Assembly (NCBI GenBank): GCA_965233585.1
Contig: CBDDTI010000068.1
Location: 1-23,701 of the forward strand
Length of the DNA stretch: 23,701 nt
Reading direction: 5' to 3'
Source: a bacterium
GTDB lineage: Bacteria; SAR324; NAC60-12
Shown one piece after another: positions 3,501-23,701 of the stretch (positions within the stretch are counted from its first letter, which is position 1; every line of letters starts with the position of its first letter). The translations under genes and the position numbers were made by a program. The notes beneath the pieces were generated by a model. That model did no database searches and was not told where the DNA came from. It worked only from the letters and a program-made list of their open reading frames with translations.

Positions 3501-3888
3501 AGGAATGACATAAAACAGCAAGGAATATAGGTGCGAAATGATAACCGTCTCTTCTAAGTCCCTTTTTTGGTGTAACCAAGAACTGTCTCTCTATATTTCA
3601 CATACGTCTTTACTCAGTCAAAGACAAGATTGTAAGTAACTTGAGGTTCAGTGGAATTTGTACAACAGGGCTGCTTTGGCACCTCCGGGTAGTTGCCAGC
3701 ATTCACTATCTAGGTTACATTTTATGGTTTTATATGGTGTGGGCAAAAATGCACATAAGAGTCAGTACTGTGATAAAAGAAAGCAAACCATTGCATGCAG
3801 GTTAGTGAACCCACCCTTTACATGCTACAAAGGGAAAGTCACGTCCTTGCAAACCAGATGAAAGATTATTTAAGTATAAGATTTGACA
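3501..3888 (-). repeat. 3' LTR (outer 16 nt missing)
   Basis: Begins TGTCAAATC on the minus strand at 3888, directly after the PPT. Identity with the 5' LTR stops at 3501; the plus-strand TGTTATATTCCTGCCG present at 16523-16538 is absent. Confidence 0.93.
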
Positions 3889-4061: not shown

Positions 4062-5925
4062 CTATTCAAACTGCTTTAAGACCGAATTGGGGAAAGGCGC
4101 AGTCGGGTTGCTACTAGACACAGATCCTGCATTTGGTGACATGAGAGGTAAAGAAGGTTCTTCCGGCTTAGCACAACGATAATTCTTCGTGAATTTCCGT
4201 CGAAAGAAGTAAATCATATAGACAAAGGCCCCTAATAGGATCACATAGAGTACAACAGAGAGCATATATCGTTCAACCCTAGAATACGACGCCTTGAGAA
4301 GAACTAACTTTCCGCCGAAACTCCGGTAATGAAAGAGAATTGGTTAACTCTATCCCTTCCAGACCATTTGTCAGATCGACCTCCTTGGCAATTGTCCCAA
4401 GCCACTCCTTGGCCTGGGAAAGCAAAGGTAACCGGATAATTTCATGATACCCTATCATGTCCGGTGCTCGAACAAACAGATATTCGGATGTTGATGCCTT
4501 CGGACACTCTTCAGTCAATTGAAGAAGATGGATTCCTTGTATCGATGTAATGTTCGTCTCCTTCTCACACTCAACGACCAGTTGGGTAGGTTCGGAGGTC
4601 ATGATTCGGTACAAGGAAGTAGAGATCTGAACGGCGTGCGAATGCATCTTTTTAACCCTCACATTACAAGTCCGCTCAATGTTGGAAGCACTTTGCGAAT
4701 ATAAGTTATATAAACAAAGATTCGTCAAATTCTTGGAAAGTAAGTTCATATTCGGACAGTGGTAAACTGCAGAAATCTTTTTGCAGAGTTGGAATTCAGA
4801 CGAAGTCATCTGTTTCCCAACAAGACCGTGAGTATCTAAGGCTAAATACTCAGCGGAACTTTCCACGTCCAGAATCACAGAAGAATTTCCCAAGAAAAAC
4901 GGTGCTGGTACATGTCTATATAGCTTTAAAGTGCTACCTGAGTACAATGGTAAATGCACAACTGCGTATAAATTACCCTCATTGTCACTCAGGGTGGAGA
5001 CCGGAACTTGGAACAAGATACCAGGATCCTCATGGGATGGAAGCAAATTACGTTTTCTAGCATTCGCAGCTAAATGATCGAAAGCCGATATAAGAGACTC
5101 AGGAGAAACGATCAAAGGTGAAAGCCTATTCTCCATGAGACTCATCATCCCTTGCAGAAAATCAGATAGCTCGAATCTGAAAGAATGTAACAATAATTGA
5201 ACCTGATGTTCCAAGCTATCCATCGCCTGTTTCCGAGATAAAGTAACAGATTCTTTAATTTGCAGTTGCCATTCGGAAAACTGATCCTGAATAAACTCAG
5301 TAATATTATGAATTCTGAGATCTTGTTCCTTTAATTGCTCTATAATTAATTTCTGGTTCTCCTCAGTCTGACCAATGTCAGACTTTAATTGTGCCATTTG
5401 AGCGGTGTTAAACATGGAGGTTCCAAAAGAAGCTAATCCCATAAAAGCTGCCGCAATTGCAGTAGCCGATCTGGTACGCCGTTTAAGTCTAAGGTTAGTA
5501 CTATTGGTAGAAGGAATTGCAGTAGGAAGTTGAAGTAAAGAATCCCTAAGCAAGTCTACCTGATCTCTTTGTAACTCCTTGGAGACAAATCCATCCTTTT
5601 GTGCCAATGACAACAACAAATTGATGCGATCCTGGATCCTCGTGATAGCGTACATCTCGTTCTCTTTGAATGGCGATTCGGTGTTGAATTTGTTCGAGAT
5701 TGTATTCCCCACGAGATCCATCAATACCTGAGTAGCCTGTTCGAGTCTTGGCAGAGGGATTGGAACAATGATGTGCCCATAACCACTTTCCCTAGTGGTT
5801 TCTCCGATTGCCAAGAAAAGCATCGTATTGTTGTTGGAGTGTAAATCTTGAGCTCGCCGGCCGCCCAACAATAGCATTGCCAAGAGAACTATCATCGGTA
5901 AATTTGAGAAGGTTTTGTTTTCCAT
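4062..5925 (-). CDS. env: Env, class I fusion protein of baculovirus-F/errantivirus type; 1-nt frameshift (4282-4343) separates the TM anchor
   Basis: Signal peptide MIVLLAMLLLG; furin site RLKRRTR|S; fusion peptide ATAIAAAFMGLASFG; heptad region; PLY..LKLY..P.PF and C-x7-C..C..C pattern. The TM segment MLSVVLYVILLGAFVYMIYFF-RRK is in the adjacent frame (ORF 4062-4265). Confidence 0.85.
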
Positions 5926-6089: not shown

Positions 6090-6356
6090 TTACACAAACA
6101 CCTCTTGCTCAGTAACTTGTCCACGCAACTTGGTAATAAAGTACAACAACCCAAACAAAGAAAAAATAAGGAAAATCACAACAAAAATTTTCAGTTTTCC
6201 TGATCGTTTATTGCAACGGTTCAAGTTCAACCGAGTTTTGCGCATCACACTCTGCAGAATTGGAGGCCTCATTCTTCCTTCTTCTACAGAGGAGCGCAAA
6301 AAATCCGCGCACAAATTCGAGGGGGGAAGGATCGTCCGCCTTCCTCTTTCTTCCAC
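6090..6356 (-). CDS. Small overlapping ORF with one TM helix (start uncertain)
   Basis: Basic segment followed by LKIFVVIFLIFSLFGLLYFI; sits between the accessory gene and env. Confidence 0.4.
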   Translation of the reverse strand: MEERGRRTILPPSNLCADFLRSSVEEGRMRPPILQSVMRKTRLNLNRCNKRSGKLKIFVVIFLIFSLFGLLYFITKLRGQVTEQEVFV

Positions 6357-8906
6357 AGCGCCAGGTGACGTAAATGAAGCCTAGCAGACTCGCAAATAAA
6401 AGCGAGCCCACACACCACGCGAGCACAATCTTCTTGTGGTCCTCCACGTCGCCTGGTTTTCCCCAGTCCTTTGTTGCGAATCTTGGAACCCTCTCAGGTT
6501 CCGGAAAACTCAATTGATATCCTTCTTGTTGGCTTAAACGATCAAGTGCACTGAACTCCTTTTTCGGCTGTTGGACTTCTTCCTCTTCTTCTCTAAGGAT
6601 CAGTTCTTTTTTCCTCTTAAGAAGTTTCTCCATTTCCTGCTTCTCTTGCCTCACACTATCCATTACCAAGGCTTCTTCACCCGAGGTGAGTAACCTTGGC
6701 TGTTGAGGCTGCATTGGCTGGTTCACATCTTTAAGGAGGAAAACATTTAAGGAAAATTCGAACTCTATACCTTAGCGAAGTTTTTTAGGAACAAAGACTT
6801 CAAACAACAAAATTAATTCTTACCCCCATCAACTTCATTCCAAGATCCATAATTAAAACTTGGTTGGACCGCAGGTACCGGTGGTCGTTGAGTATAATTC
6901 TCAACGAGCTCCGTTGGCACTTGCCCAGTCCGGATCGCATTGGCCAACACCTGGGAAGCAAACTCGCTCTGTTGTTTAAACTTCTCATTGGCGAGTTTCT
7001 CCCGCAGAAGATCCGCCTCCAGGGTGTCCGTCAGGTTCTTATGCTTTTCCGCAGTCTTCTCCTCCGAGTCGTCCTGTTTCTTCTGGATCGCGCGGTCAAT
7101 CTGGGAGGCTGTTATGTAAGCTCCCAAACCCGCAAGACCAGTCCCAGCATACTTCCCTGCCTTTGTCCAGTAAGGATGTCGTTCGGAGAAAGTTCTCATT
7201 GCATCGCCGACCCTATTATGAAGTTTAAAGTCTTCCCTTACCTGAGGCAAGAAAGACCCCCCTTCATTGGTGATTCGCGACGCAGAACGGACATCTCCAA
7301 AGCTGGAATCCAGGGAATCCAAGGAAGAGGTTGACGATGATCTTGACAACGGTCGATCACCAGCCAAATTTCTTCTTTGCTGTGGAACAGGACGCTGCTT
7401 GTAATTGGGGATGAAGTAATTCGGAGGTTCCAATGGTGGCATGGGATGCCATCCCGAACGAGGAGCCGGTACCGGTCGTGGTACAGCTATCGCGCCTCTC
7501 GTAGGAACTCCGGAAGAACCTGGTAAAGATGCCAACGACGAAACCGATGGTGAACGTTGAATGGGGTTAGGAGGTTGGAAGGAGTCTAGCGAGGTGGTCC
7601 TGGCACGAAGATTGGTGAGAGACACTGGTGGAAGATTCGCCGCCTGAGGTCCGGAACCCGAGGTGAAACTGTGGGTCCCCGATGCACTCCCGACCCTAGG
7701 ACGTGTTTGAGTATTCATTCGGCGAATATCTTGAAGACTGAGGGTGTTGAAGACCCCAGGACCGGGCGCACCCGGCCTCGTCTTCGCCGCTCCCATGCCA
7801 GCTCCGACTCCTGTGCCAGCTCCAAGTCGCATCAAAACGTTACGACTCGGAGAAGGTGGTCCTCTCCTCGATCCACCACGTGAACTGCCAGACTTCGAAG
7901 AAGAAGATGAACCTCCCTTCTTCTTAGGTCTCTTCCCCAACTTCCTAAGAGGTGACCGCTTTCTTCTATTCGAGCGTGATGGAGGATCCGAGATGATTAA
8001 GGCCGGTTCATTCCCCGCTGGCGTATACTGCCGCCGGTAGCTCAATAGCTCCCCGAAGCTATTCACCATCTCCCATTGTCCGAAACCGTATCCGGGAGGA
8101 GGATTTTCCCTGGTGAAACAAGGGGTGTACTGCGTCGCCTCACAGTTTCTCTTGTCCTCCTCGGTGATAAATGCGCATGGGTAGGTGGTGAGCAAAGTCC
8201 GACATCTGTCCACAAGCGTTTGCTGTAGCATTGTGGTGACGATGACCTTGCCTATTTGCTCCGGCAACTTCGTATTGTCCAAGGGAATGAACATCATCTC
8301 CATCCGTTGAGACATGATATAGGAGAAGAAATCCTGTAAGTATCCATAGACCAGGGTAGAACGAGTGTAGGGTGCCTTCCGGATTACCAGATCATAGAGA
8401 ACCTGATCTAAATGTACCCCGGCCATCACCGCCCGAACGTTTTCTGGACTGAGAACGTACTCCTTGTTCGCTCTCTTGGATCTCCGAAGGACCTTCTTTT
8501 CCAATTCAAAATCATGTCGCCCATCTAACAATCAAAGTAATTAGAGCCCAGAAAATTTCAGAGAAATAGAAATTTATTTACCTAAAACTTTATTGAGGCC
8601 CAAAGCCTTGTTGTTAGTTCGAGGTGGAACACCTCTAAAATCTCGAAGCATCTTGGAGAAATAATCGAGGACACAATCACTCGGTTTGCGTCCACCTCCA
8701 AGTAGCGGTAGCGGGTAAATCGGTCTTGATGTAGTAGTCGTTGTCTCGAAGCGCGTAGGACGCTTAGGTCTGCACAAGGGAGAAGGTCGAGCACAAACGA
8801 CCCCAGTCCTATTGGAACGTCCCCCTCGCGGAATCAGACGTCTCCTCCACTTCGGTCTTGGCGTTGGAGACGCTTCCTCAGTAGACCTCTTGCGCCTCGC
8901 GTTCAT
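6208..8906 (-). CDS. Spliced accessory membrane protein, exons 8906-8582, 8524-6824, 6728-6208 (848 aa predicted)
   Basis: Two phase-1 GT-AG introns join three ORFs in frame. The product has multibasic RRKRS/RRSKR motifs, a Ser/Pro/Gly-rich middle, a coiled-coil-like part and a C-terminal TM segment IVLAWCVGSLLFASLLGFIYVTW followed by RCGRKRK. Confidence 0.72.
6729..6823 (-). other. 95-nt spliceosomal intron (predicted)
   Basis: GG|GTAAGA...TTTTCCTCCTTAAAG|AT. Its removal restores frame: ...EVDG-D-VNQPMQ. Confidence 0.75.
8525..8581 (-). other. 57-nt spliceosomal intron (predicted)
   Basis: AG|GTAAAT...CTAAT...TTGTTAG|AT. AT-rich; its removal deletes in-frame stops and gives ...NKVL-D-GRHDF. 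Confidence 0.75.
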
Positions 8907-8952: not shown

Positions 8953-9231
8953 TTATTCTGTTTCAGAAGCTGCTCCAGGTGTTCCGGGTCCCGCTGATTG
9001 CTCCGAATCCGATCCCATTGGCGAGGTGAAGTTTTCGTTATTCACGTGGAAGTTGAAGTTAATCGAGCCATGATTGGCCGACGGTCCTTGTGTGTTCCAC
9101 ACGTTCGAATCCGCTGAAGAATCCTGAGCAGTTGACGTCATATGCGCCATCTCTTGGTACCCCGTGTACCCTTCACCGGAAAATCCACCTCCCATGGCGT
9201 CGAACAAGAGCGGTAAAAGGAATCCAGCCAT
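8953..9231 (-). CDS. Small accessory ORF (92 aa from MAGFLLPLLF); possibly the frameshifted N-terminus of the downstream accessory gene
   Basis: Good-context ATG (AGGATGG), hydrophobic N-terminus, Gly/Ser-rich. It overlaps the open frame (from ~9042) that leads into ORF 8574-8906. Confidence 0.45.
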   Translation of the reverse strand: MAGFLLPLLFDAMGGGFSGEGYTGYQEMAHMTSTAQDSSADSNVWNTQGPSANHGSINFNFHVNNENFTSPMGSDSEQSAGPGTPGAASETE

Positions 9232-9561
9232 CCTTAAATTATTCAGTTTTGGTTGTTGTTGAAAACGAAAAGCGAACTTAAGTACCCTTACTGCTGAAGA
9301 GCAACTTTGTAAGTGAATGTCTAAGTGAAAATGAGTGATTTTTATATGAAATTTGTGGTTCCAATTCAGGAACCCCAAGATGAATACTTGGATCTGATTG
9401 GTGGAAAAAGTTTTGGCGCAAAAAATGGACAATATTTACGACGCAATTTGTCTGGCGTATTTGACAATGGGCTGCAATCTATTAGCCAAATGACAGAAAG
9501 TGATTTTGACAGCTTCCGTCTCCGTAATAGATTACAGTCAGGGATTTATTTGAATAACCCA

Positions 9562-12500
9562 CTAATGGGAAGGGGTTTGGTCGAGTTCATTGTCCCTGCA
9601 GGCTTCCAGAGGAAAAATTTCGTGAATACTGCGTTTCAATATTTTCCTGGAATTTTTGGACCTCAAAAGAACCGTTCGAACTTGACCATCTGTCCCCTTA
9701 ATTATTCGAAAAACCCTACCTAATGGCCATTGATATTGTTTCCTATTTTGCTCCTCAATTAACACCAAATCTCCGATCTTCAAGTTTGGATGTTTAGAAA
9801 ACCACCTATGTCTGGCATGAAGTTGGGTTAAATATTGTGATGTCCACAACTTCTTAAATTCTCGAGACAAATCCTGACGTTGCTCCCAACGAAGTCTCAC
9901 TTCCGAGGAGTCATCGCATTCTGTCTCAGAGAAAAAATCCTGCCATAGGCGAATACGTCTTCCAAGACAAAGCATAGAAGGCGTAATCACATCAAATGCT
10001 TCTTCAGATACGGCAAGCAGAGGGCGATCGTTAACTTGCGCCTCCGCATCCTTCATCAGGGTGAGAAAGTCGACGTAGGTCATGACTTCTGACTTATCAA
10101 GTAACTTTCTCATGGGAACCTTGATGAGTTTCACTGCCCTTTCCCAAATGCCGCCTCCGGCCGAATGAAGCTCCGTAGAGTAACTCCACTTAAACTCATA
10201 CTTGTCCGCGGCATCCTTAATGATCTCGTTATTAATGGCGATCGTTTCCTTCAACTCTTTATCGGCCTTTTTGAAGTAAAGGCCATTATCAGAGTATAAA
10301 TGGACTGGCACGCCACGAATCGACATCATGCGTCGCAGAGCAAGCAAAAAGTCTTCAGCCTCATTCGATAGAACGAGTTCCGTATGAACCGCTCTGGTAA
10401 TAAGGCAAGTAAATATGACCATATAGCAAGGATGAGTATTCCTCGCCCTTATAGTCATTTTAACTTGAAACTTTGCCGTGTAATCTACCCCAACTTTAGT
10501 GAAGGGTGGAGAATACTTTAATCTGATAGTAGGGAGAGGAGCCATGATCTGCTGACCTCTCCTCGCATTTGATTTTTGGCATTCTAAACATTTTCTCAAT
10601 ACACTTCTTATTTGAAGCCTACTAGACATAATCCAGTATTGTTGCCGCAAATGGAAGTGTGTCCAATCAACAGGAGAATGTTGATTGTCCAGATGAGTTT
10701 TTAAGATGAGTGATGTAACAAATCCATGACCTTTTGGAAGAATGATTGGAAACCTCTCAAACTCCAAAAGTGGGGCTTCAACTAATCTACCGTGCACTCT
10801 CAACACTCCCCTTTCGTCCAACTGCGGGTTTAATGGCAAAAGTTTGGAGTGTCTTGGGATATCCTGTCCCCGGTTTAGATTTTCTATTTCCTCAGCGAAA
10901 TGAGAAAATTGGGCCTGTTTGATCCAATAAAGTCGTGCACGTTGTTTATGGTGCGAAATTTTATTTGGATCTAGAATAGCTGATTTCTTACTTAGGGCTT
11001 TAATTTTCCAAATATCCACGATTTCCATGATTAACATGGTCTTCCTCAGAAGAAGATCGTGGTCTCCATAATAGTCAGCCATATTGACGACCATCATGTT
11101 TTGTGGATATTCCTCGTAAGTTTTACTTATAGTCAAATGACTATAGACAAATTGCTTCTTTACTTCCTGCAATTTATCTACTTTGGAGAAATCCACTTTG
11201 GGTATTTTCCAATCCTCTCGCGAGAGTCGCAAGAAATTTGGGCCCTGAGTCCACAAAGTTCTTTTCAATGCGCTAGGAGCACATCCACGGCTTGCAATAT
11301 CCGCTGGATTCATTTGCGTGCTCACGTATTGGAAAACATACCCAAACCCTTGAATTTTTTGTACTCGATTAGAAACAAAGGGTAACAAGGAATTTGGCTT
11401 CTTTGTTAGCCACCATAGTGTTGTTTCTGAATCAGAATAACAAAAAATCCGGTTCTTTGGAAAATTGAGTTCTTCCCTAATCATATCAGCTATCTTTGCA
11501 CACAAGAGTGCAGCCACTAATTCTAAGCGAGGCACAGAAATATCTTTTGTGGGATTAATTTTCGACTTTGCAAACAACAATGTAGATTCATAACGATTTT
11601 CCTTATTGTTAAACGTCCGTGCATATGCTGCGACTCCATGGCCCATATTCGCAGAAGCGTCGCCAAAGACATGTAACTCCGTAGAGTCATTGAACTCCAC
11701 ATGTCTAGGAAACGTAACATCTTTCAATTCAGGTAGCATTTCCAACCACCTGTGCCATTCCTGCTGCAAATTTGGGGAAAGTTTACTCTTCCAATTTATT
11801 TTCTCCTCAAAAGTACTCTTCAAGATTTTTCTTGCAAGAAGGATAAAAGGAGAAATAAGTCCCAAAGGGTCAAAAGGTCTCGCAAGCAAACTGGCTACGG
11901 AGGTTTTAGTGTCATCATTATGAATCGCCATACTGCAATAATGTCGAAAAATAAATGTATCCTGTGACGGATCCCATCTAATCCCCAAAGAAGAAGTTTC
12001 TTCGCTTAAAAACAAAGAACTTTCCTCTTTGTCAGTGGTTGTAGGTGCACGAGCCTCCTTAGGAATTCTCTTAAGGAGCTCTGGTGAATTAGTTGCCCAT
12101 TTATGGATTTTAAAATGACCTCTATCTAATAACTTACAAAGTTCTCTATACATGGTAAAGGCTTCTTCTACTGAATCACCCCCGGTGGTGACATCATCTA
12201 CATACGTATCCTTCAGGATGGTATCACACGCCCTTTTTTCAAAGGTCGTGAGGCCTGCCTCTAACAACCGGTCTTTAACAAGTCGTTGCAAGCAAGATAT
12301 GGCTTGAAAGGGTGAATCTGCCGCGCCAAAGATCAATGTTTTAAATTGATAAACTTTGGTAGTGGCCTTGGGATCGTCCGGATCCCTCCACAAGAATCTA
12401 AGATACTGTCGATCTATTGGGTCCACCTCAATTTGTAAAAACATTTTACTTATATCGCCAATAAGAGCAATTCTCCTAGTGCGAAATCTCAATTCAACAG

Positions 12501-13737
12501 CCACAATGGCCTGTTGTAGAGGTGGCCCTGGCAATAGGGAGTCATTCAGCGAAAATCCCGAAGGGGATTTCGCCGACGCATCAAACACGATGCGACATTT
12601 CGTGCTGACGCGTGTAGGATCATAGACAGCCCTATGGGGAAGGAAATATAGATCGGTCCGTCCTAAATTGCCCATTTCCTCGATCGTCTCTGTGGTCACT
12701 TCCTCAATTGTACATTGGTCAATGTAATCATTCATTGCCTTGAGGTAAGCGGCCTTTAAATCTGGATCCTTTTTCAACCTTCTCATGAGACCTTCCAGGC
12801 GGGCCTTCGCCGAGGCAATATTGTTGACCAACTTTGGTTGCTCACTTCGCCATAGAAGTCTCGTGGTGAAACGACCGGAAACTGGGTTGTATCTCAGATT
12901 CTCCGACATGCTTTCGACAGCCATAATCTCATCCACGCTGAGTTTCTCGTCAGTGTGATCTCTGGGGAGTTCTTCAATAGTCCACATCCTCTCGATATTC
13001 TTGTTAAGCTGTTCCACAGTCGTAACAAAAGTATCGATGTCCTCTTGTTGTTCTCGTAGCATCCCACAAGGTACAAGTCCGAATTTCGTCTTGATGATGA
13101 CCAAAGACTCGCCGATCTTCTGGTCAATGCCTTGTACGATTGTCCACATGTCCACGACTCCCAGGAGAATGTCCACATCGCCTCCCTTCCTCGGGATCGA
13201 TTCATTCAATTCAAGGGAATTCAGCTTCTCGCGTAAATTGCCGTCAACATGTATATTTTCATAATTGATGCTCATTATGAAAGGAACTACGAAACAATCA
13301 AAGGAAACAAAACCGAACGATGCCTTTAAATGGCATCTAACCTTCCGCGAATGTTGTACTTTTATACCATGAAGCGTGTTAATGGACAAAGTTACATTTT
13401 TATCAAGAGTTTCATGTCTTACCCCTCTCAAAGCCTTTGCAGTAATGAAAGAAGAAGTAGAACCTGTGTCCAATAGAACCCTTAATCTACCATCCTTGGA
13501 AGCTTGGTTTTGAACCATCAATGTGGGGAGTAATTGTGGTGAATTTAAATTAGGGTGTGGTAATTGAAGTTCTCCTCCCAGAGTTCTGCCTGAAAAATTA
13601 GTGAAATTATTAGAACGATGAAGGTTTGTTAAATCAAAGACTACATTAGCGTTACAAATTTTCACGGTAGGGGATTTCCATTTGTTAGAGGGCCCCCTTA
13701 CGCCCACCGGTAAGTCCGATGGGAGCCCCAAATTTTC
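9562..13737 (-). CDS. pol: Pol: aspartic protease, RT, RNase H, integrase; in frame with gag after a UAG
   Basis: VLLDTGS (PR); YFLPH..V, CRIVFDAS, DISKMFLQI, YVDD (RT); LHVFGDAS, VPRLELVAA, SDS, NPADIASRG (RH); H..C..C, GVDY, SDNG, GGIWER (IN); GDLVLI..WPLGRV C-terminus. No native ATG at the 5' end. Confidence 0.97.
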   Translation of the reverse strand, partial: ENLGLPSDLPVGVRGPSNKWKSPTVKICNANVVFDLTNLHRSNNFTNFSGRTLGGELQLPHPNLNSPQLLPTLMVQNQASKDGRLRVLLDTGSTSSFITAKALRGVRHETLDKNVTLSINTLHGIKVQHSRKVRCHLKASFGFVSFDCFVVPFIMSINYENIHVDGNLREKLNSLELNESIPRKGGDVDILLGVVDMWTIVQGIDQKIGESLVIIKTKFGLVPCGMLREQQEDIDTFVTTVEQLNKNIERMWTIEELPRDHTDEKLSVDEIMAVESMSENLRYNPVSGRFTTRLLWRSEQPKLVNNIASAKARLEGLMRRLKKDPDLKAAYLKAMNDYIDQCTIEEVTTETIEEMGNLGRTDLYFLPHRAVYDPTRVSTKCRIVFDASAKSPSGFSLNDSLLPGPPLQQAIVAVELRFRTRRIALIGDISKMFLQIEVDPIDRQYLRFLWRDPDDPKATTKVYQFKTLIFGAADSPFQAISCLQRLVKDRLLEAGLTTFEKRACDTILKDTYVDDVTTGGDSVEEAFTMYRELCKLLDRGHFKIHKWATNSPELLKRIPKEARAPTTTDKEESSLFLSEETSSLGIRWDPSQDTFIFRHYCSMAIHNDDTKTSVASLLARPFDPLGLISPFILLARKILKSTFEEKINWKSKLSPNLQQEWHRWLEMLPELKDVTFPRHVEFNDSTELHVFGDASANMGHGVAAYARTFNNKENRYESTLLFAKSKINPTKDISVPRLELVAALLCAKIADMIREELNFPKNRIFCYSDSETTLWWLTKKPNSLLPFVSNRVQKIQGFGYVFQYVSTQMNPADIASRGCAPSALKRTLWTQGPNFLRLSREDWKIPKVDFSKVDKLQEVKKQFVYSHLTISKTYEEYPQNMMVVNMADYYGDHDLLLRKTMLIMEIVDIWKIKALSKKSAILDPNKISHHKQRARLYWIKQAQFSHFAEEIENLNRGQDIPRHSKLLPLNPQLDERGVLRVHGRLVEAPLLEFERFPIILPKGHGFVTSLILKTHLDNQHSPVDWTHFHLRQQYWIMSSRLQIRSVLRKCLECQKSNARRGQQIMAPLPTIRLKYSPPFTKVGVDYTAKFQVKMTIRARNTHPCYMVIFTCLITRAVHTELVLSNEAEDFLLALRRMMSIRGVPVHLYSDNGLYFKKADKELKETIAINNEIIKDAADKYEFKWSYSTELHSAGGGIWERAVKLIKVPMRKLLDKSEVMTYVDFLTLMKDAEAQVNDRPLLAVSEEAFDVITPSMLCLGRRIRLWQDFFSETECDDSSEVRLRWEQRQDLSREFKKLWTSQYLTQLHARHRWFSKHPNLKIGDLVLIEEQNRKQYQWPLGRVFRIIKGTDGQVRTVLLRSKNSRKILKRSIHEIFPLEACRDNELDQTPSH

Positions 13738-13740
13738 CTA
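13689..13740 (-). promoter_or_regulatory. Putative stop-codon readthrough signal (UAG + 8-nt spacer + stem/pseudoknot)
   Basis: UAG GAAAAUUU GGGGCUCCCAUCGGACUUACCGGUGGGCGUAAGGGGGCCCU. GGGGCUCCC/GGGGGCCCU, CCCAUCGG/CCGGUGGG and CUUAC/GUAAG can pair. Confidence 0.7.
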
Positions 13741-16020
13741 ACTACTTTGGGGAGGGACTAAATCTTTCGACCGACCATGCAGCGATCGATGATGTCTTCC
13801 GCGACAATTATCTTGATCGCATCCCGGATGGGGACACGACGAAGCCCAATGACCTGCCTTTAAACAATTAAGGCATAGCTGAAATTCTAAAGCCTTTACA
13901 TACATGGTATCAGGTTTCATCTTTTGTGTACAATGATTAGAACTATGTCGCGGACTGTTACAAAAACAACAGGGTATCACTTCCCTTTCTCTATTGTCTT
14001 TATCACTCATCGCTGATTGGTCAGTCTTGGTTGTAGATATCACTGGTGTTGATCCTCTTCCTCTGCCCCTTCCTCTGCCTCCGCCACGACCTCTACCACC
14101 TCGAGTACCGCCTCTTCCTCTACCTGTTCCACGGCCGCCACGTGCTGCACCACCCCCCATGTTATTTGTAGCGGTTGCAGCAACCGTGTCTGTCGCCAAG
14201 ACCGTGGTTACGTCTTCTGGCTCCGACTTCTGTGAATGTTGAGCACCTCCTTTATTTCCCTTGGAATCCTTCTTCTTGCTTTTGTTATCCCCAAATTCCA
14301 TGGCTATACCAGACGGTTGGCCCAATTTGATTTTGGGGTTACTTGGATCGGCATGGTAAAAGGTCCTCGCCATAGAGACCTGCTTCTCCATCCAATCTAA
14401 CATGAAATCCAATTTATTCCTATCACTCATTTTGCCTCTCAAAGTTTCCTCCCTGTCGAGTGCCCACTGATAATCACTGCGCATTCTCTGATTGAATTTA
14501 CAGTGCAACTCGTGACAAATTGCCCTAGCGTTAAAGGTAGCTCCATCCTCGTATTGCAGAAGGCTCATCACGTAGTTGGTGGCAAATCCGAAGAACTGTG
14601 CAAGGTCCTTGTACCTATTCTCAGGGACCATCGGAAATGCAATAAGCCTCTCCCTTAGTTGACTTAGGGAGGCTTCAGTGTCACCGAAAGCTTTCTCCAG
14701 GTTCCTTTTCAATTGATCGTAACTCCCAGGTGAAAAGGTGATCTGGTGAGTGAGGTAATTCGCTGTTCCCTTGAGAGAGCTACTGAGTAAATGAAGTTTC
14801 ATGATTTTAGGAATTTTTGGATTTCTATCTACCAAACAAGTAAACATAGCATAGAACTTGTGGAACTCCAAGGGGTTACCATAAAAGTTTGGTAACTTGA
14901 CATCAGGTAGAGTGTGGTATTGGCCTGAGTAAGGCTGAGGAGCAGAAAAAAGTTCTGCACCAGTTTCCTCAATCTTCAAATGGAAACGTTGGGCCAAAGA
15001 ATCCATGTCATGGGTCATTGCCCCTGCCTGTGACTGCATGCCTGTGCCTTCTTCTTCCGCAAACCCCCTCATTAAGTTATTCATCATGAACTCCTTTTGC
15101 TGGGGAGTCAAGCTTTCGCTTTCCAGTACAAATTTAAGCATTTGCTGCCTCTGCACGTCCTTCCTTTCTTCTGAAGGCGCTCTGCTTCCCCTCCTGGTTG
15201 AGGACAAGCCTGGCACAAAGGCTCCAGCACCTTCATGCTTCTCCTCTTTTGGTTCCTTTCTCTGGCCTGCTTCAGGTTGACCTGATTCTGGAACATTATC
15301 TGCAGAGGAAGCATTAAAAGAAAGGAAAGTCTCCCCCGGTTCAGGAAAGTCTTGAAAAAGCACTGGCACGGAAACACCATCGTCTGAAAATGCAGTGTTC
15401 AGCATTTCTATCACAGGAAGCACACTTTCTCTGACCCAGTTCGTGTGTGCTTGCACAGCATGACCTAGATTCTCCCCTGACAAGAACATTAAGTACGTGA
15501 CAGTATCTAGAAACTCACGAAAAAGGGATAAGGCCATTGCCCTATAAATGTCTAAACCTTTTGTCCATCCCCTTTCTTGAGTAGTCACACCCTCCCTGAA
15601 AGACTGAAGCTTCTCTACGTAACTACAAACTAGAGCTCTTCTTGCCACCATAAACCTTTTCACTTCATCCTCGGCACAATCAGATATTAAGGCTTCTGAT
15701 GTGCCAGGATAAGCCATTCTACCGAGAGATTTATCAAGTTCTCTCAGCAGAAGGGTGACGATGGGTATTTCCCTATTGACTGGTATGTGTAACTCAAAGG
15801 GAAACCCAATTAAAAGTCTGATGAAAAGACGCATCCTATCTAGCTGTTCTTCATCACCTAAGTCTTGACCAGCGAAATAATCCTTTACCTCGCCGGCCCT
15901 GATGGCATTTCTCACGGTTTCGTAGAATGCAAGCCATTCTTGATTTCTTCTTGATCTGGCTTGCTGCTTCAGATCCATCACAGTTGGGTTATCACGTACT
16001 TCTGACCTTGTTCTTACCAT
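13738..16020 (-). CDS. gag: Gag (BEL/Pao type), 760 aa
   Basis: LPDVKLPNFYGNPLEFHKF (DUF1759-like capsid start), an RGG-rich tract, and three C-terminal knuckles: CFCNSPRHSSNHC, CLNCLKAGHWASSC and CDQDNCRGRHHRSLH. Confidence 0.95.
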   Translation of the reverse strand: MVRTRSEVRDNPTVMDLKQQARSRRNQEWLAFYETVRNAIRAGEVKDYFAGQDLGDEEQLDRMRLFIRLLIGFPFELHIPVNREIPIVTLLLRELDKSLGRMAYPGTSEALISDCAEDEVKRFMVARRALVCSYVEKLQSFREGVTTQERGWTKGLDIYRAMALSLFREFLDTVTYLMFLSGENLGHAVQAHTNWVRESVLPVIEMLNTAFSDDGVSVPVLFQDFPEPGETFLSFNASSADNVPESGQPEAGQRKEPKEEKHEGAGAFVPGLSSTRRGSRAPSEERKDVQRQQMLKFVLESESLTPQQKEFMMNNLMRGFAEEEGTGMQSQAGAMTHDMDSLAQRFHLKIEETGAELFSAPQPYSGQYHTLPDVKLPNFYGNPLEFHKFYAMFTCLVDRNPKIPKIMKLHLLSSSLKGTANYLTHQITFSPGSYDQLKRNLEKAFGDTEASLSQLRERLIAFPMVPENRYKDLAQFFGFATNYVMSLLQYEDGATFNARAICHELHCKFNQRMRSDYQWALDREETLRGKMSDRNKLDFMLDWMEKQVSMARTFYHADPSNPKIKLGQPSGIAMEFGDNKSKKKDSKGNKGGAQHSQKSEPEDVTTVLATDTVAATATNNMGGGAARGGRGTGRGRGGTRGGRGRGGGRGRGRGRGSTPVISTTKTDQSAMSDKDNREREVIPCCFCNSPRHSSNHCTQKMKPDTMYVKALEFQLCLNCLKAGHWASSCPHPGCDQDNCRGRHHRSLHGRSKDLVPPQSS

Positions 16021-16442: not shown

Positions 16443-16521
16443 AGTACCTTGGTTCAATTGGTATGATGTTTTCGCCTGCCTTCGGCCCTTAGAGGTTTGA
16501 TTTCCCGGTTAGCATGCACCA
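16443..16521 (-). promoter_or_regulatory. Primer-binding site, extended complement of tRNA-Gly(GCC)
   Basis: The plus strand reads GGTTCAATTGGTA...TCGCCTGCC...GGTTTGATTTCCCGG...ATGCACCA. These blocks are collinear with the D-arm, anticodon arm, T-arm and acceptor+CCA of eukaryotic tRNA-Gly(GCC). The CCA is 1 nt from the LTR end. Confidence 0.8.
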
Positions 16522-16522
16522 A

Positions 16523-16922
16523 TGTTATATTCCTGCCGAGGAATGACATAAAAACAGCAAGGAATATAGGTGCGAAATGATAACCGTCTCTTCTAAGTCC
16601 CTTTTTTGGTGTAACCAAGAACTGTCTCTCTATATTTCACAAACGTCTTTACTCATCAAAGACAAGATTGTAAGTAACTTGAGGTTCAGTGGAATTTGTA
16701 CAACAGGGCTGCTTTGGCACCTCCGGGTAGTTGCCAGCATTCACATCTAGGTTACATTTTATGGTTTTATATGGTGTGGGCAAAAATACACATAAGAGTC
16801 AGTACTGTGATAAAAGAAAGCAAACCATTGCATGCAGGTTAGTGAACCCACCCTTTACATGCTACAAAGGGAAAGCCACGTCCTTGCAAACCAGATGAAA
16901 GATTATTTAAGTATAAGATTTG
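16523..16922 (-). repeat. 5' LTR (outer 3 nt missing)
   Basis: Inner end reads ...GGAATATAACA on the minus strand and is followed by T-TGG (PBS). It matches the 3' LTR with 3 substitutions and 3 one-base indels. The terminal TGT seen in the other copy is absent. Confidence 0.93.
16765..16771 (-). promoter_or_regulatory. Candidate LTR TATA box
   Basis: TATAAAA on the minus strand in mid-LTR (also at 3728-3734). A variant poly(A) signal AGTAAA lies downstream at 16648-16653. Confidence 0.4.
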
Positions 16923-20869: not shown

Positions 20870-20961
20870 GGGTTGTCTGGATAGCTCAGAGTGGTAAGGT
20901 GATAGTTTTTATCAGAGAGATCTCGGGTTCGAGTCCTGGGGCCAACCATATCCCCAGTGTT
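20870..20961 (+). mobile_element. tRNA-derived SINE head (diverged copy)
   Basis: A box TAGCTCAGAGTGG and B box GGTTCGAGTCC, followed by CCATATCCCCAGTGTT; homologous to 23591-23701. Confidence 0.7.
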
Positions 20962-21833
20962 TTCTGGCCTCCTTTGGTAGAGATGTGGACTTCGGTTAAA
21001 AAGTTGATCAAAGATGATCAGAGCCTGCAATTCGCAAGCACCGACGGGCAGTGACACACTCAGGGGTTTGGTAGGAAAAAAAGGTTTAGAGTGGTACTTC
21101 CCAGCCATGGGCCAACTTAGGTTTCTAGCAAGCCAGGAAGTGATGGTCTTTCTGGTTGGTTGTCATGTAAGTAAGACCTGGGAATACAAAGAGCATCTGA
21201 ATGGGGGTGCTGGTTGTTGCAGGCTGTGTGGTCAGCTTTACTTGGGTGAGAGCCTAGGCTTTCTGATGATTAACTTGCTAGTAAGAGCGAGACGACAGCC
21301 GTTGTGGGATGATTGGCACCTCCTATAATTCCAGCGACTGGAACGCAACCTGTTGACCAAGGGTGAGATAATGGTCAAGTAGGGTACTGAAGAAATCCCT
21401 TGACCTCCCATGGGTCAAAAGCAAGTGGAAACACTGGGGATTACCCCCACTTCTAAAAAAAGACTCTTCTCTTCTAGGTCTGTTGTGGCAAGAAATCTTG
21501 GATGGCCAGGTGGGTACTTCTTAAAGGTAACAGACTCGCTATAAAAGATAGGGTGTACCCGTTTCAAGACATAAGTATTAATAACGGTGATGTCACAATG
21601 TGACACTAAAGAGGTTTTGTGACAACGAAAGTTGCGATTTTTGTTAAAATTAGAGGCGGGGGGGGGGGGGAGTCCATAGGGAATAACATGCAAAAAGGTA
21701 AAATAAATCATCATTGTTGATGGATCTGCTTGTTGAATTGATTTGGTAATCATATTTTTAGTTAATTTCTTGACAAAACATATATTCTTATTCTATTCTG
21801 GTTTCAATTGTTCTCCTCACCACTCTGGTAGAG

Positions 21834-23590: not shown

Positions 23591-23701
23591 GGGTTGTCTG
23601 GATAGCTCAGAGCGGTAAGGCGCTAAGGTTTCGTAGGAGAGGTCCTGGGTTCGAATCCCAGGGCCCACCATATCCCCAGTGTTCTCACCCTACACTGGGG
23701 A
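23591..23701 (+). mobile_element. tRNA-derived SINE head (runs off window)
   Basis: A box TAGCTCAGAGCGG, B box GGTTCGAATCC in a CCTGG/CCAGG stem, poor acceptor and anticodon stems, then hairpin TCCCCAGTGT..ACACTGGGGA. Confidence 0.75.

Follow-up and report, generated by a model that had tools for sequence, protein, structure and literature searches.

An in-frame stop codon between the gag and pol genes of a retroelement may mark a decaying copy, or it may be part of the way in which the element produces its Gag-Pol protein. This question is raised by a 13.4-kb BEL/Pao LTR retroelement on the minus strand of the window, which here means the whole stretch of 23,701 nucleotides that was analysed. 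A first-pass annotation had proposed that gag and pol share one frame across a UAG codon that is read through in the gammaretroviral manner. Re-reading of the minus strand bears out the arrangement: gag ends in ...CAA AGT AGT TAG (TAG at 13740-13738) and the same frame continues with GAA AAT TTG GGG CTC into a pol of 1391 codons. This UAG is the sole internal stop across the 2153 codons of gag-pol. The element comprises the following parts:

16539..16922, minus strand: 5′ LTR, a direct repeat with 3501-3885 (identity at 380 of 386 aligned positions)
13741..16020, minus strand: gag, 760 codons, from the ORF list and its translation (Pfam PF03564, E = 1.6e-11)
13738..13740, minus strand: UAG stop ending gag, in frame with pol; proposed readthrough site
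9565..13737, minus strand: pol, 1391 codons (stop at 9564-9562), with protease, reverse transcriptase, integrase and DUF5641
6813..8531, minus strand: extra ORF of 572 aa inside the element, of no known family
4279..5925, minus strand: extra ORF of 548 aa, a candidate F-type envelope fusion protein by its nearest Atlas clusters
3501..3885, minus strand: 3′ LTR, a direct repeat with 16539-16922

The two LTRs are 98.4% identical and flank a coding region with the gene order of BEL/Pao elements, namely a DUF1759-type gag, a Pao-type aspartic peptidase, reverse transcriptase (RT) and integrase. Besides the DUF1759 domain, the gag product has two CCHC knuckles and a third finger, of Cys-His type, that ends in HHRSLHG. 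In pol, Pfam matches were obtained to Peptidase_A17 (PF05380, E = 2e-39), RVT_1 (PF00078; 21 bits, below Pfam's own cut-off of 29.6 bits), Integrase_H2C2 (PF17921) and DUF5641 (PF18701). The 572-aa ORF has neither a Pfam nor an Atlas match, and its codon differences from the sister copy C640 are 68 synonymous and 21 non-synonymous by an ungapped count. The 548-aa ORF has no Pfam match; its closest Atlas clusters have Fusion_gly or Baculo_F (score 0.95), making an F-type envelope fusion protein possible, as a lead only. A putative primer-binding site 3′ of the 5′ LTR has no matching tRNA gene in the assembly. The element is probably young, active and env-carrying. Gene callers annotate such elements as two proteins, one with gag alone and a pol whose start is placed at an internal GTG.

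The stop was followed through 14 BEL/Pao gag-protease junctions. Ten of them carry UAG or UGA and come from four divergent lineages of the assembly; two are fused (C683 of the same assembly and G028:C297 of another genome), in a further one pol lies in the -1 frame, and the last could not be read. The expectation that BEL elements are usually single-ORF, on which the first-pass annotation had drawn, therefore fails for this clade. In all ten cases the stop sits 5-12 codons past the last zinc finger. It is UAG in C68 (the window), C640 and C231, and UGA in C212, C523 (two junctions), C328, C228, C193 and C58, with pol identity to the window falling from 88% to about 35-41%. Six of the ten are uninterrupted from the finger into the protease. 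Among the others, C212 has a 1-nt frame change past the stop, C328 and the second C523 site have a 1-nt indel relative to sister copies, and the first C523 copy has additional stops ahead of the protease. The copies are not assembly duplicates of one locus, as their flanks, LTR positions and sequences differ.

Within the window's own family, TAG is kept in the three copies that cover the site (C68, C640 and C231). Among the variants listed for contigs at least 80% alike, from four runs of one study that probably represents the same sample as the assembly, none falls at 13738-13740 or in the two arms of the stem described below (13721-13729 and 13689-13697); the spacer, loop and flanks vary in these run contigs. 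The runs listed as carrying the element include no RNA run. The conservation of UAG expected under programmed readthrough is thus found in the family. A sense codon in other copies, which had been named as the observation that would speak against it, occurs in a minority, two short database fragments: P0120 has Cys at the position of the lineage-2 UGA, and P0012 reads on at the stop site. Since both UAG and UGA occur at one site, the comparison suggests selection for a stop as such, and the aligned copies indicate a stop that is conserved under selection rather than a nonsense mutation that arose by chance. Among database gag proteins with the last zinc-finger motif, 26 of 81 end 3-20 residues past it, a count made on protein sequences.

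Purifying selection acts on pol downstream of the stop. The window element and its sister C640 (99% identical) differ at 56 codons, 51 synonymously and 5 non-synonymously, and in pol 33 of the 35 codon differences are synonymous. In the more distant C231 (79% identical), the frame is open throughout gag (748 codons from the first Met) and, beyond the TAG, throughout the 1391 codons of pol.

The region 3′ of the stop also has the general character that had been described for it. A GC-rich segment lies in an AT-richer setting (G+C of 0.57 in the 60 nt past the stop, mean 0.43), and a 9-bp stem starts right after an 8-nt spacer. The features of this region, in order from the stop, are:

13730..13737, minus strand: 8-nt spacer GAAAAUUU, with G at +4
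13721..13729, minus strand: 5′ arm of the outer stem, GGGGCUCCC, pairing with 13689-13697
13714..13720, minus strand: 7-nt 5′ bulge AUCGGAC, from the alignment and the MFE folds of C231 and C212
13710..13713, minus strand: inner helix, 5′ side (UUAC), pairing with 13698-13701
13702..13709, minus strand: apical loop CGGUGGGC; 13702 is variable (C to G in C231)
13698..13701, minus strand: inner helix, 3′ side (GUAA), pairing with 13710-13713
13689..13697, minus strand: 3′ arm of the outer stem, GGGGGCCCU, pairing with 13721-13729
13667..13682, minus strand: second conserved block AAAUGGAAAUCCCCUAC, the same in C68 and C231, with variable flanks

Two of the nine outer pairs, formed by GGGGCUCCC (13729-13721) with GGGGGCCCU (13697-13689), are G-U. 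The spacer GAAAAUUU, with purines at five of eight positions, is the variable part: among the variants listed, run contigs have other letters at 13733, 13735 and 13737, some of them with A instead of G at +4, and C231 reads GAAAUUUC. The core of the bulge, UCGGA, is almost invariant across lineages 1 and 2, and the block AAAUGGAAAUCCCCUAC has no variant among those listed for the run contigs.

Applied to the window, the chance test gives modest support. Stems of at least 9 bp, with at most two G-U pairs, a loop of 4-35 and a start 5-9 nt past a codon, occur at 885 of 47,202 window positions and at 56 of 2,120 in-frame gag-pol codons. The 60 nt past the stop fold to -21.7 kcal/mol, a value equalled or bettered by 55 of 2,130 in-frame windows (mean -10.9). 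Relative to dinucleotide-shuffled versions of itself, an 86-nt stretch is unexceptional (z = 0.06), and the 41-nt hairpin reaches z = -1.46, with 21 of 200 shuffles folding as well. The case therefore rests on the comparison with other copies.

In this comparison, synonymous change is reduced over the structure and the stems covary. Between C68 and C231, dS is 0.19 in the first 20 codons past the stop (2.5 synonymous differences over 14.8 sites), as against 1.36 over the final 120 codons of gag, 0.63 across PR-RT and 1.06 for the remainder of pol. Synonymous codon identity past the stop is 0.86 versus 0.64 overall, which is elevated but not extreme (164 of 2,057 windows are equal or higher). 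The fold with the best support is a nested, bulged stem-loop rather than a pseudoknot of the murine leukaemia virus (MLV) type. In the nested model of 13 pairs, all 51 of 51 cells are paired and four pairs have changes on both sides in lineages 1 and 2. Neither the pairing nor the covariation score was matched in any of 500 shuffles, and slid controls reach at most 67%, the covariation coming from four distinct sequences of two lineages in one assembly and the shuffle control ignoring their relatedness. All nine outer pairs form in the four sequences, with two compensatory changes; the four inner pairs are 100% paired, with both-side changes at two.

The first-pass annotation had named the 9-bp stem first, with an alternative hairpin, CCCAUCGG/CCGGUGGG, joined to a CUUAC/GUAAG pseudoknot pairing. 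Both the hairpin and the complementarity are present in the window. As the main fold, this hairpin-plus-pseudoknot was set aside for the nested model, in which 100% of cells are paired. It competes with the outer stem and scores well itself, with 91.5% of cells paired including the pseudoknot helix (87.5% in the hairpin helix alone). CUUAC/GUAAG counts as a pseudoknot only if this 8-bp hairpin is taken as the reference, with 2 nt left to span its stem, and by pseudoknot geometry a connection of this length across 8 bp looks too short. In the covariation model, it is better read as the inner helix nested within the 9-bp stem. The 9-bp stem thus stood, covarying and recurring in a third lineage, whereas the alternative hairpin as main fold and the MLV-style pseudoknot gave way to nested helices. 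Another MLV-like pseudoknot, between the apical loop and a downstream C-rich block, was also rejected as not consistently better than shuffles. This pairing beats shuffles in four of six copies, whereas for the remaining two copies the shuffles that do as well number 205 and 388 out of 500; the value of 205 is that of C68, with AAAUGGAAAUCCCCUAC as the partner of the G-rich loop. A search of 13550-13850 with Rfam cmscan (4227 families, which may or may not include a gammaretroviral readthrough model) yielded just two matches, both at chance level and on the opposite strand (E = 1.5 and 3.6).

Signals at the same site were found in the other lineages. Lineage 3 (C328 and C228) has UGA-GAG, an 8-nt spacer and a 12-bp stem, and the 8-nt spacing is kept in three lineages with unlike loops. 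The hairpins of lineages 2 and 3 have z-scores from -2.4 to -3.7. A covariance model of lineages 1 and 2 lands exactly on the lineage-3 stop codons, at noise-level scores: these matches score low (13.2 and 12.1 bits) and lie among unrelated ones. A covariance-model search also revealed one more, degenerate lineage-2 junction (C523:49271-49340), without new covariation. Lineage 4 (C193 and C58) has no stem and carries UGA-CAA-CUA or UGA-CAA-CCA at the homologous gag stop.

On the evidence of these aligned junctions, programmed stop-codon readthrough is the most likely mechanism for Gag-Pol, and we consider it probable. Termination at the gag UAG, with release of Gag, would be the outcome for most ribosomes. 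In a minority, a near-cognate tRNA would decode the UAG and translation would carry on without a change of frame into protease, reverse transcriptase and integrase, giving the Gag:Gag-Pol ratio that particle assembly needs. The stimulating signal would be the 3′ context, made up of G at +4, the 8-nt spacer and a GC-rich bulged stem-loop (9-bp outer stem, 7-nt 5′ bulge, inner helix of 4-5 bp and apical loop), which would be positioned at the ribosome's mRNA entrance when the stop occupies the A site. We infer the stimulating role of the stem-loop, as well as readthrough by ribosomes and its efficiency, from this arrangement.

An unlikely alternative is that the stop is conserved and Pol is made separately, from a transcript with an internal promoter or by internal initiation or reinitiation downstream, with the stem-loop serving RNA packaging, dimerisation or ribosome pausing for termination. 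The gag-pol junction of Tca2 offers a precedent, as the available part of its description reports a minor promoter there and no UGA readthrough by the junction alone in S. cerevisiae (PMC2194720). The window has an in-frame Met 17 codons ahead of the protease active site, a Met that C231 and the partial copy C58:1-700 share, but lineage 2 lacks it and reads LLPVVRVPVQ. Moreover, the 95 codons from the stop to the protease have a dN/dS of 0.41 and are in frame with gag in six of ten junctions, as expected if translation enters from gag, and in four lineages the stop directly precedes known readthrough contexts. In retroelement biology, Pol normally enters particles as a Gag fusion, which also counts against its separate production.

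It is quite unlikely that readthrough depends on the immediate context only (the stop, G at +4 and a GAR codon), with the stem conserved for its encoded peptide (GLPSD...GVRGP) or for an RNA function unrelated to decoding. The codon past the stop is GAA in the window and GAA or GAG in lineages 2 and 3, so that stop-GAR is common to lineages 1-3; the peptide GVRGP recurs at the start of the database relatives P0003 and P0004, and the window hairpin is barely more stable than its shuffles. However, the compensatory changes in the stem (CUC to UCC opposite GGG to GGA) in part alter the amino acid in one arm while being silent in the other, a pattern that pairing accounts for better than peptide conservation does. 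The spacing of the stem is kept in three lineages despite the unlike loops, and past the stop it is dS that drops, not dN.

Removal of the stop in the RNA, by A-to-I editing to UGG or by splicing, is very unlikely. A single A-to-I change would turn either UAG or UGA into UGG, structured RNA lies nearby, and the amber/W site of hepatitis delta virus is a precedent, but the conserved helices begin 8 nt past the stop and exclude it. Among the rows listed for the run contigs, no supported joint removes the stop alone; three joints span 13738-13740, each skipping 74-88 nt in single DNA contigs at a depth of 2-3, and they are flagged as not known to be a cut or as having diverged letters of the same length between. 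Finally, an inactivating nonsense mutation in a dead copy, with the hairpin a chance product of GC-rich sequence, is extremely unlikely and contradicted by the comparative data. Comparable stems do occur at about 2-3% of positions and the shuffle z-scores of the window hairpin are weak, but the stop is at the same place in 10 of 14 junctions from four lineages, copy differences are 51 synonymous to 5 non-synonymous, also past the stop, the LTRs are 98.4% identical and the stems covary. Thus, in the initial proposal of programmed readthrough rather than a nonsense mutation, the rejection of the mutation held, and readthrough itself has the standing of what we infer.

Programmed readthrough at this site can be compared with the known classes of signal, as given in the available part of one review (PMC3542737). 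The type III signal of MLV gag-pol consists of UAG, a G directly after it or a purine-rich 8-nt spacer, and a compact H-type pseudoknot. The window likewise has gag and pol in one frame across UAG, with G next, a spacer of type III character and a GC-rich structure, and the presumed purpose, setting the Gag:Gag-Pol ratio, is the same. In contrast to MLV, the supported fold is a nested bulged stem-loop without an Rfam match, the element belongs to BEL/Pao and not to Retroviridae, its sister lineages use UGA, and it is known from sequence alone. Because of the different fold and the absence of an Rfam match, convergence with gammaretroviruses is plausible.

The best structural analogy is type II, in which alphaviruses, coltiviruses and several plant viruses combine a leaky stop with an extended stem-loop about 8 nt downstream, in the same available part of the source (PMC3542737). 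The window has such a stem-loop at about that distance, lineages 2 and 3 use UGA, and all six copies of lineages 1-3 have an outer stem of 9-12 bp starting 5-8 nt past the stop. However, type II has UGA followed by CGG or CUA in the portion of the source available, whereas the window has UAG-GAA and lineages 2 and 3 have UGA-GAA or UGA-GAG; the setting is also a retroelement gag-pol and not the extension of an RNA-virus replicase or capsid. The tobamovirus (type I) context, stop-CAR-YYA according to that part of the review (PMC3542737), is found only in lineage 4, as UGA-CAA-CUA or CCA without a stem. It differs from the window, which reads GAA AAU; natural plant-virus cases are mostly UAG.

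Among retrotransposons, the available part of the Tca2 report describes this Ty1/copia element of Candida albicans as gag-UGA-pol with a potential pseudoknot and no readthrough in a yeast reporter (PMC2194720). It shares with the window an in-frame gag/pol stop and a predicted 3′ structure in an LTR retrotransposon; therefore the same architecture is not proof of readthrough. Unlike Tca2, with its internal promoter, the window element has covariation and four lineages, all from sequence comparison only. Classical BEL/Pao elements (Pao, BEL, Roo, Sinbad, Cer7 and others) are treated as a single large polyprotein ORF, as far as the accessible text of their description goes (PMC554778). The window shares with them the DUF1759 gag, Cys-His fingers, Peptidase_A17, RT, integrase and DUF5641, but its gag and pol are split by a conserved stop; its relatives C683 and G028:C297 are fused. 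Roo-like elements have been reported with an F-like env, in the part of the source available (PMC13524379), and the last ORF of the window is possibly of this kind. Within the long-gag clade proposed below, at least the window's family would have env-like ORFs.

An alignment search with pol gave no confirmed relative in 63 genome stretches, 594 metagenome stretches or 235 viral stretches. Four metagenome loci from a gag alignment scan were rejected as unrelated, having only the CCHC knuckle in common. Among 101 genomes (G000 and 100 relatives), matches were found only in G000 and G028, and the G028 copy is fused. A word-indexed protein search found two proteins among 5,359 candidates, and a full HMMER protein scan found 290 at E up to 0.001.

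To our knowledge, BEL/Pao has been studied less than the other two LTR-retrotransposon superfamilies. A full-text literature search, with the main survey of gag-pol recoding (Gao et al. 2003) outside its reach, found no paper on readthrough in BEL/Pao; that survey may mention such cases. The BEL/Pao literature found, in the parts available, assumes one polyprotein and nowhere discusses how the Gag:Pol ratio is set.

There is about an even chance that readthrough is the ancestral and general route to Gag-Pol in a large, undescribed long-gag BEL/Pao clade, with a modular recoding signal. As part of that reading, lineages would have swapped UAG with UGA, and a structural signal of 8-nt spacer and bulged stem-loop with the linear CAR-YYA, at the same codon, and BEL/Pao elements would have independently reached the solutions of gammaretroviruses, alphaviruses and tobamoviruses. 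If the readthrough interpretation is right, a conserved readthrough site would explain the Gag:Pol ratio for the whole clade. It would add an example from invertebrate hosts to structure-stimulated readthrough and would provide natural "mutants" for comparison, with three stem variants and one stem-less CAR-YYA variant. For annotation, it would be a warning against reading decay into a stop that interrupts the shared gag-pol frame of such elements.

The window, which is the complete contig C68 of a 12 Mb, 747-contig assembly, carries an element of 13.4 kb from LTR to LTR. The domains of its gag and pol are the BEL/Pao set, and the two genes are separated by a single in-frame stop codon.

Features of the element and of the sequence around it
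16539-16922 and 3501-3885, minus strand: LTR direct repeats, identical at 380 of 386 positions
16503-16521, minus strand: TGGTGCATGCTAACCGGGA, about 17 nt past the 5´ LTR, which looks like a primer-binding site (candidate)
In one frame with pol, minus strand: gag, 760 codons, with a DUF1759 domain, two CCHC knuckles and a third Cys-His finger
13740-13738, minus strand: single TAG stop at the gag/pol boundary, in the frame of both genes
Downstream of the TAG and in frame, minus strand: pol, 1391 codons, with Peptidase_A17 (E = 2e-39), RVT_1, Integrase_H2C2 and DUF5641
Interval from pol to the 3´ LTR, minus strand: two extra coding ORFs, given in the next two entries
6813-8531, minus strand: ORF of 572 aa downstream of pol and ahead of the env-like ORF, where the G+C of the window peaks (0.54)
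4279-5925, minus strand: ORF of 548 aa directly before the 3´ LTR
8953-9432, 8574-8906 and 6208-6726: smaller ORFs
20904-20964 and 23626-23686, plus strand: 61-nt repeat copies, 79% alike, with a tRNA-like box (GGTTCGA.TCC), possibly SINE fragments
21520-21615/22891-22986 and 20074-20161/20412-20499: further short repeats

No tRNA gene in the assembly matches the complement of the candidate primer-binding site. The 548-aa ORF has no Pfam match; its nearest ESM-Atlas clusters carry Fusion_gly (paramyxovirus F) or Baculo_F (score 0.95, 209 of 256 features shared), and it differs by 13 synonymous and five non-synonymous codons from its copy on contig C640. It may be an F-type envelope (fusion glycoprotein) gene, in which case the element would be an env-carrying BEL/Pao member, like Roo. 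The 572-aa ORF matches neither Pfam nor the Atlas; with 68 synonymous against 21 non-synonymous codon differences from C640, it looks like a real gene inside the element.

The assembly is filed among prokaryotes (92% complete, 2% contamination, G+C 0.35-0.45). Many of its contigs hold metazoan retroelements, and matches to BEL/Pao gag or pol occur on at least 20. Since BEL/Pao elements are not known outside animals, a large share of the assembly probably comes from a host.

The first-pass annotation described the junction as a readthrough signal resembling that of MLV, and re-reading the sequence bears out its components: ...AGU AGU UAG GAA AAU UUG GGG CUC, the 8-nt spacer after UAG, the 9-bp pairing GGGGCUCCC/GGGGGCCCU, the alternative hairpin CCCAUCGG/CCGGUGGG, the CUUAC/GUAAG complementarity and a local rise in G+C (0.57 vs 0.43). 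Judged on this one sequence, the features stand out only slightly. Stems of this kind are found after 885 of 47,202 window positions and after 56 of 2,120 in-frame codons, 55 of 2,130 in-frame windows have a fold at least as stable as that of the 60 nt downstream of the stop, and dinucleotide shuffles nearly match the fold (z = 0.06 over 86 nt, z = -1.46 over the 41 nt of the hairpin).

Fourteen gag-to-protease junctions, from copies in the assembly and from another genome (G028), were read in three frames. A stop lies 5-12 codons past the last zinc finger in ten of them, which fall into four lineages.

Stop-bearing junctions by lineage (pol identity to the window's element)
Lineage 1: C68, C640 and C231; 99.9% (C640) and 88% (C231); UAG-GAA
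Lineage 2: C212 and C523 (two sites); about 58-60%; UGA-GAA, UGA-GAG and, at the degenerate second site, UGA-A with one base lost
Lineage 3: C328 and C228; about 50%; UGA-GAG
Lineage 4: C193 and the second element on C58; about 35-48%; UGA-CAA

Among these stop-bearing junctions, six are open all the way into protease. C212 has a 1-nt frame change downstream of the stop, C328 and the second C523 site a 1-nt indel after it relative to sister copies, and the first C523 copy additional stops ahead of protease. At the other four junctions, gag and pol are fused (C683 and G028:C297), the copy is too decayed for reading (C95), or pol lies in the -1 frame with an overlap (C233, 6500-7900, minus strand), an arrangement that may use -1 frameshifting instead of readthrough.

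The C231 element is intact, with an open gag (748 codons from the first Met), TAG and 1391 open pol codons. Just upstream of it, a second, partial gag (C231:8274-9620, residues 1-456, 64% identical) may be a sign of tandem or nested copies. C68 and C640 represent distinct insertions with an LTR pair apiece and are 97.5% identical across 13.4 kb. Of the 56 codons that differ between their gag-pol frames, 51 are synonymous; in pol the figure is 33 of 35, with the TAG unchanged, and pol is therefore maintained as a translated gene. This agrees with the earlier view that the stop is no chance nonsense mutation, and a dead copy inactivated by its stop is the least credible explanation of all. Codons 728-916 (189 codons, window 13270-13840, minus strand), which span the stop, show no difference between the two copies where about five would be expected (56 over 2153); this could reflect wider constraint, gene conversion or chance.

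In four public runs of one study, possibly the very data behind the assembly, contigs with a similarity of at least 80% aligned to the junction (21, 29, 31 and 5 pieces), and none of the variants listed falls at 13738-13740. Within 13689-13732 only 13702 and 13720 are listed as variant, and many variants are listed in the spacer, the end of gag and the downstream flank.

A full HMMER scan (query of 200 gag codons, X and 200 pol codons) retrieved 290 proteins at E up to 0.001. The last-finger motif is present in 81 of the top 150: 26 end 3-20 residues past it (mode 10), including eight gag proteins of 672-865 aa, 18 continue into the protease motif and the remaining 37 are unclassified. P0006-P0010 and P0013, the closest gag relatives, have their C-terminus within 1-2 residues of the window's stop position. 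Two close pol relatives begin MGVRGP, which corresponds to a start called at the GTG within the window's stem, the kind of choice a gene caller would make shortly past a stop. Two short fragments run counter to this pattern: P0120 has Cys in place of the lineage 2 UGA and continues in frame to protease, and P0012 reads on past the stop position.

Lineages 1 and 2 align well across the 70 nt after the stop. All nine pairs of the outer stem (13721-13729 with 13689-13697) form in all four distinct sequences, with changes from G-U to U-A and from C-G to U-A and two one-sided changes giving wobble pairs; slid controls pair no more than 78%, and 15 of 500 shuffles are as good. The complementarity proposed as a pseudoknot is better read as nested: in single-sequence folds of C231 and C212, CUUAC/GUAAG forms a second helix inside the outer stem, stacked on it over a 5´ bulge of 7-8 nt whose core, UCGGA, is nearly invariant in both lineages. 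In this nested model of 13 pairs, all 51 cells are paired and four pairs have changed on both sides; no shuffle of 500 equals its score for pairing or for covariation, slid controls pair 67% at best, and both listed variant positions are unpaired.

The competing model, an 8-bp hairpin with the pseudoknot, pairs 91.5% of cells overall and 87.5% within the helix of the hairpin, shares three bases with the outer stem and was rejected as the main fold in favour of the nested model. As a pseudoknot it leaves 2 nt to cross the 8-bp stem, which is probably too short by pseudoknot geometry. An MLV-type pseudoknot between loop and downstream sequence can be drawn for lineage 1, where the apical CGGUGGG lies opposite CCUACCG, 17 nt past the stem in a block invariant between C68 and C231, but the duplex energy is better than that of shuffles in only four of six copies.

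In lineage 3 the loop is unrelated, a 12-bp stem starts 8 nt past the UGA, and a G-U pair of C328 is G-C in C228. A covariance model derived solely from lineages 1 and 2 sets its first position exactly on both lineage 3 stops, with weak scores (13.2 and 12.1 bits) that unrelated matches equal. Hairpin z-scores in lineages 2 and 3 range from -2.4 to -3.7, and no Rfam family matches the junction region.

Between C68 and C231, dS is 0.19 in the first 20 codons after the stop (small counts, 2.5 synonymous differences over 14.8 sites), 1.36 in the last 120 gag codons, 0.63 in PR-RT and 1.06 in the rest of pol; dN in those 20 codons is ordinary (0.13). Synonymous codon identity after the stop is 0.86 vs 0.64 overall (17-codon windows), a value equalled or exceeded in 164 of 2,057 windows. 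Over the whole comparison (window 9565-16020 vs C231:10462-16881), gag and pol are discordant (dS 2.3-2.6 vs 0.6-1.1, amino acid identity 66% vs 88%), which suggests recombination between lineages near the junction.

Programmed stop-codon readthrough is the most economical reading and a likely one, a judgement made with the reporter failure of Tca2 in view. Termination at the stop would yield Gag, and occasional near-cognate decoding of it would yield Gag-Pol, stimulated by a G at +4 together with the spacer and by the bulged stem-loop, which would sit at the mRNA entrance of the ribosome. Tca2 has the same architecture (gag-UGA-pol with a potential pseudoknot), yet readthrough was absent in yeast and an internal promoter was found (PMC2194720), so such a design can fail in a reporter. 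Separate expression of Pol, the foremost alternative, is improbable here. Readthrough in which the stem has no role is slightly less probable again, beside the paired changes and the low dS after the stop; removal of the stop by RNA editing or splicing is very unlikely.

Lineage 4 lacks the stem and reads UGA-CAA-CUA or UGA-CAA-CCA, a Leu-to-Pro difference that preserves the YYA pattern. In the sections consulted of PMC3542737, the tobamovirus type I signal is UAG-CAR-YYA and works on UGA too, type II signals have extended stem-loops, and type III signals combine UAG and a 3´ G or purine-rich octanucleotide with a structure such as the MLV pseudoknot. In form, the window's signal is intermediate between the extended stem-loop of type II and the UAG-G of type III, and it is no homologue of the MLV element.

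The key survey of Gao et al. 2003 reportedly emphasizes single ORFs and frameshifts, and may list in-frame stops. Full-text literature searches found no paper on readthrough in BEL/Pao, and the portions consulted of the BEL/Pao survey (PMC3118150), the Sinbad paper (PMC554778), two LTR surveys (PMC6238403 and PMC8556966) and PMC13524379 do not tie a stop codon to gag-pol expression. While the mechanism itself is of a known kind, its presence, its conservation and the diversity of its signals in BEL/Pao appear to be new.
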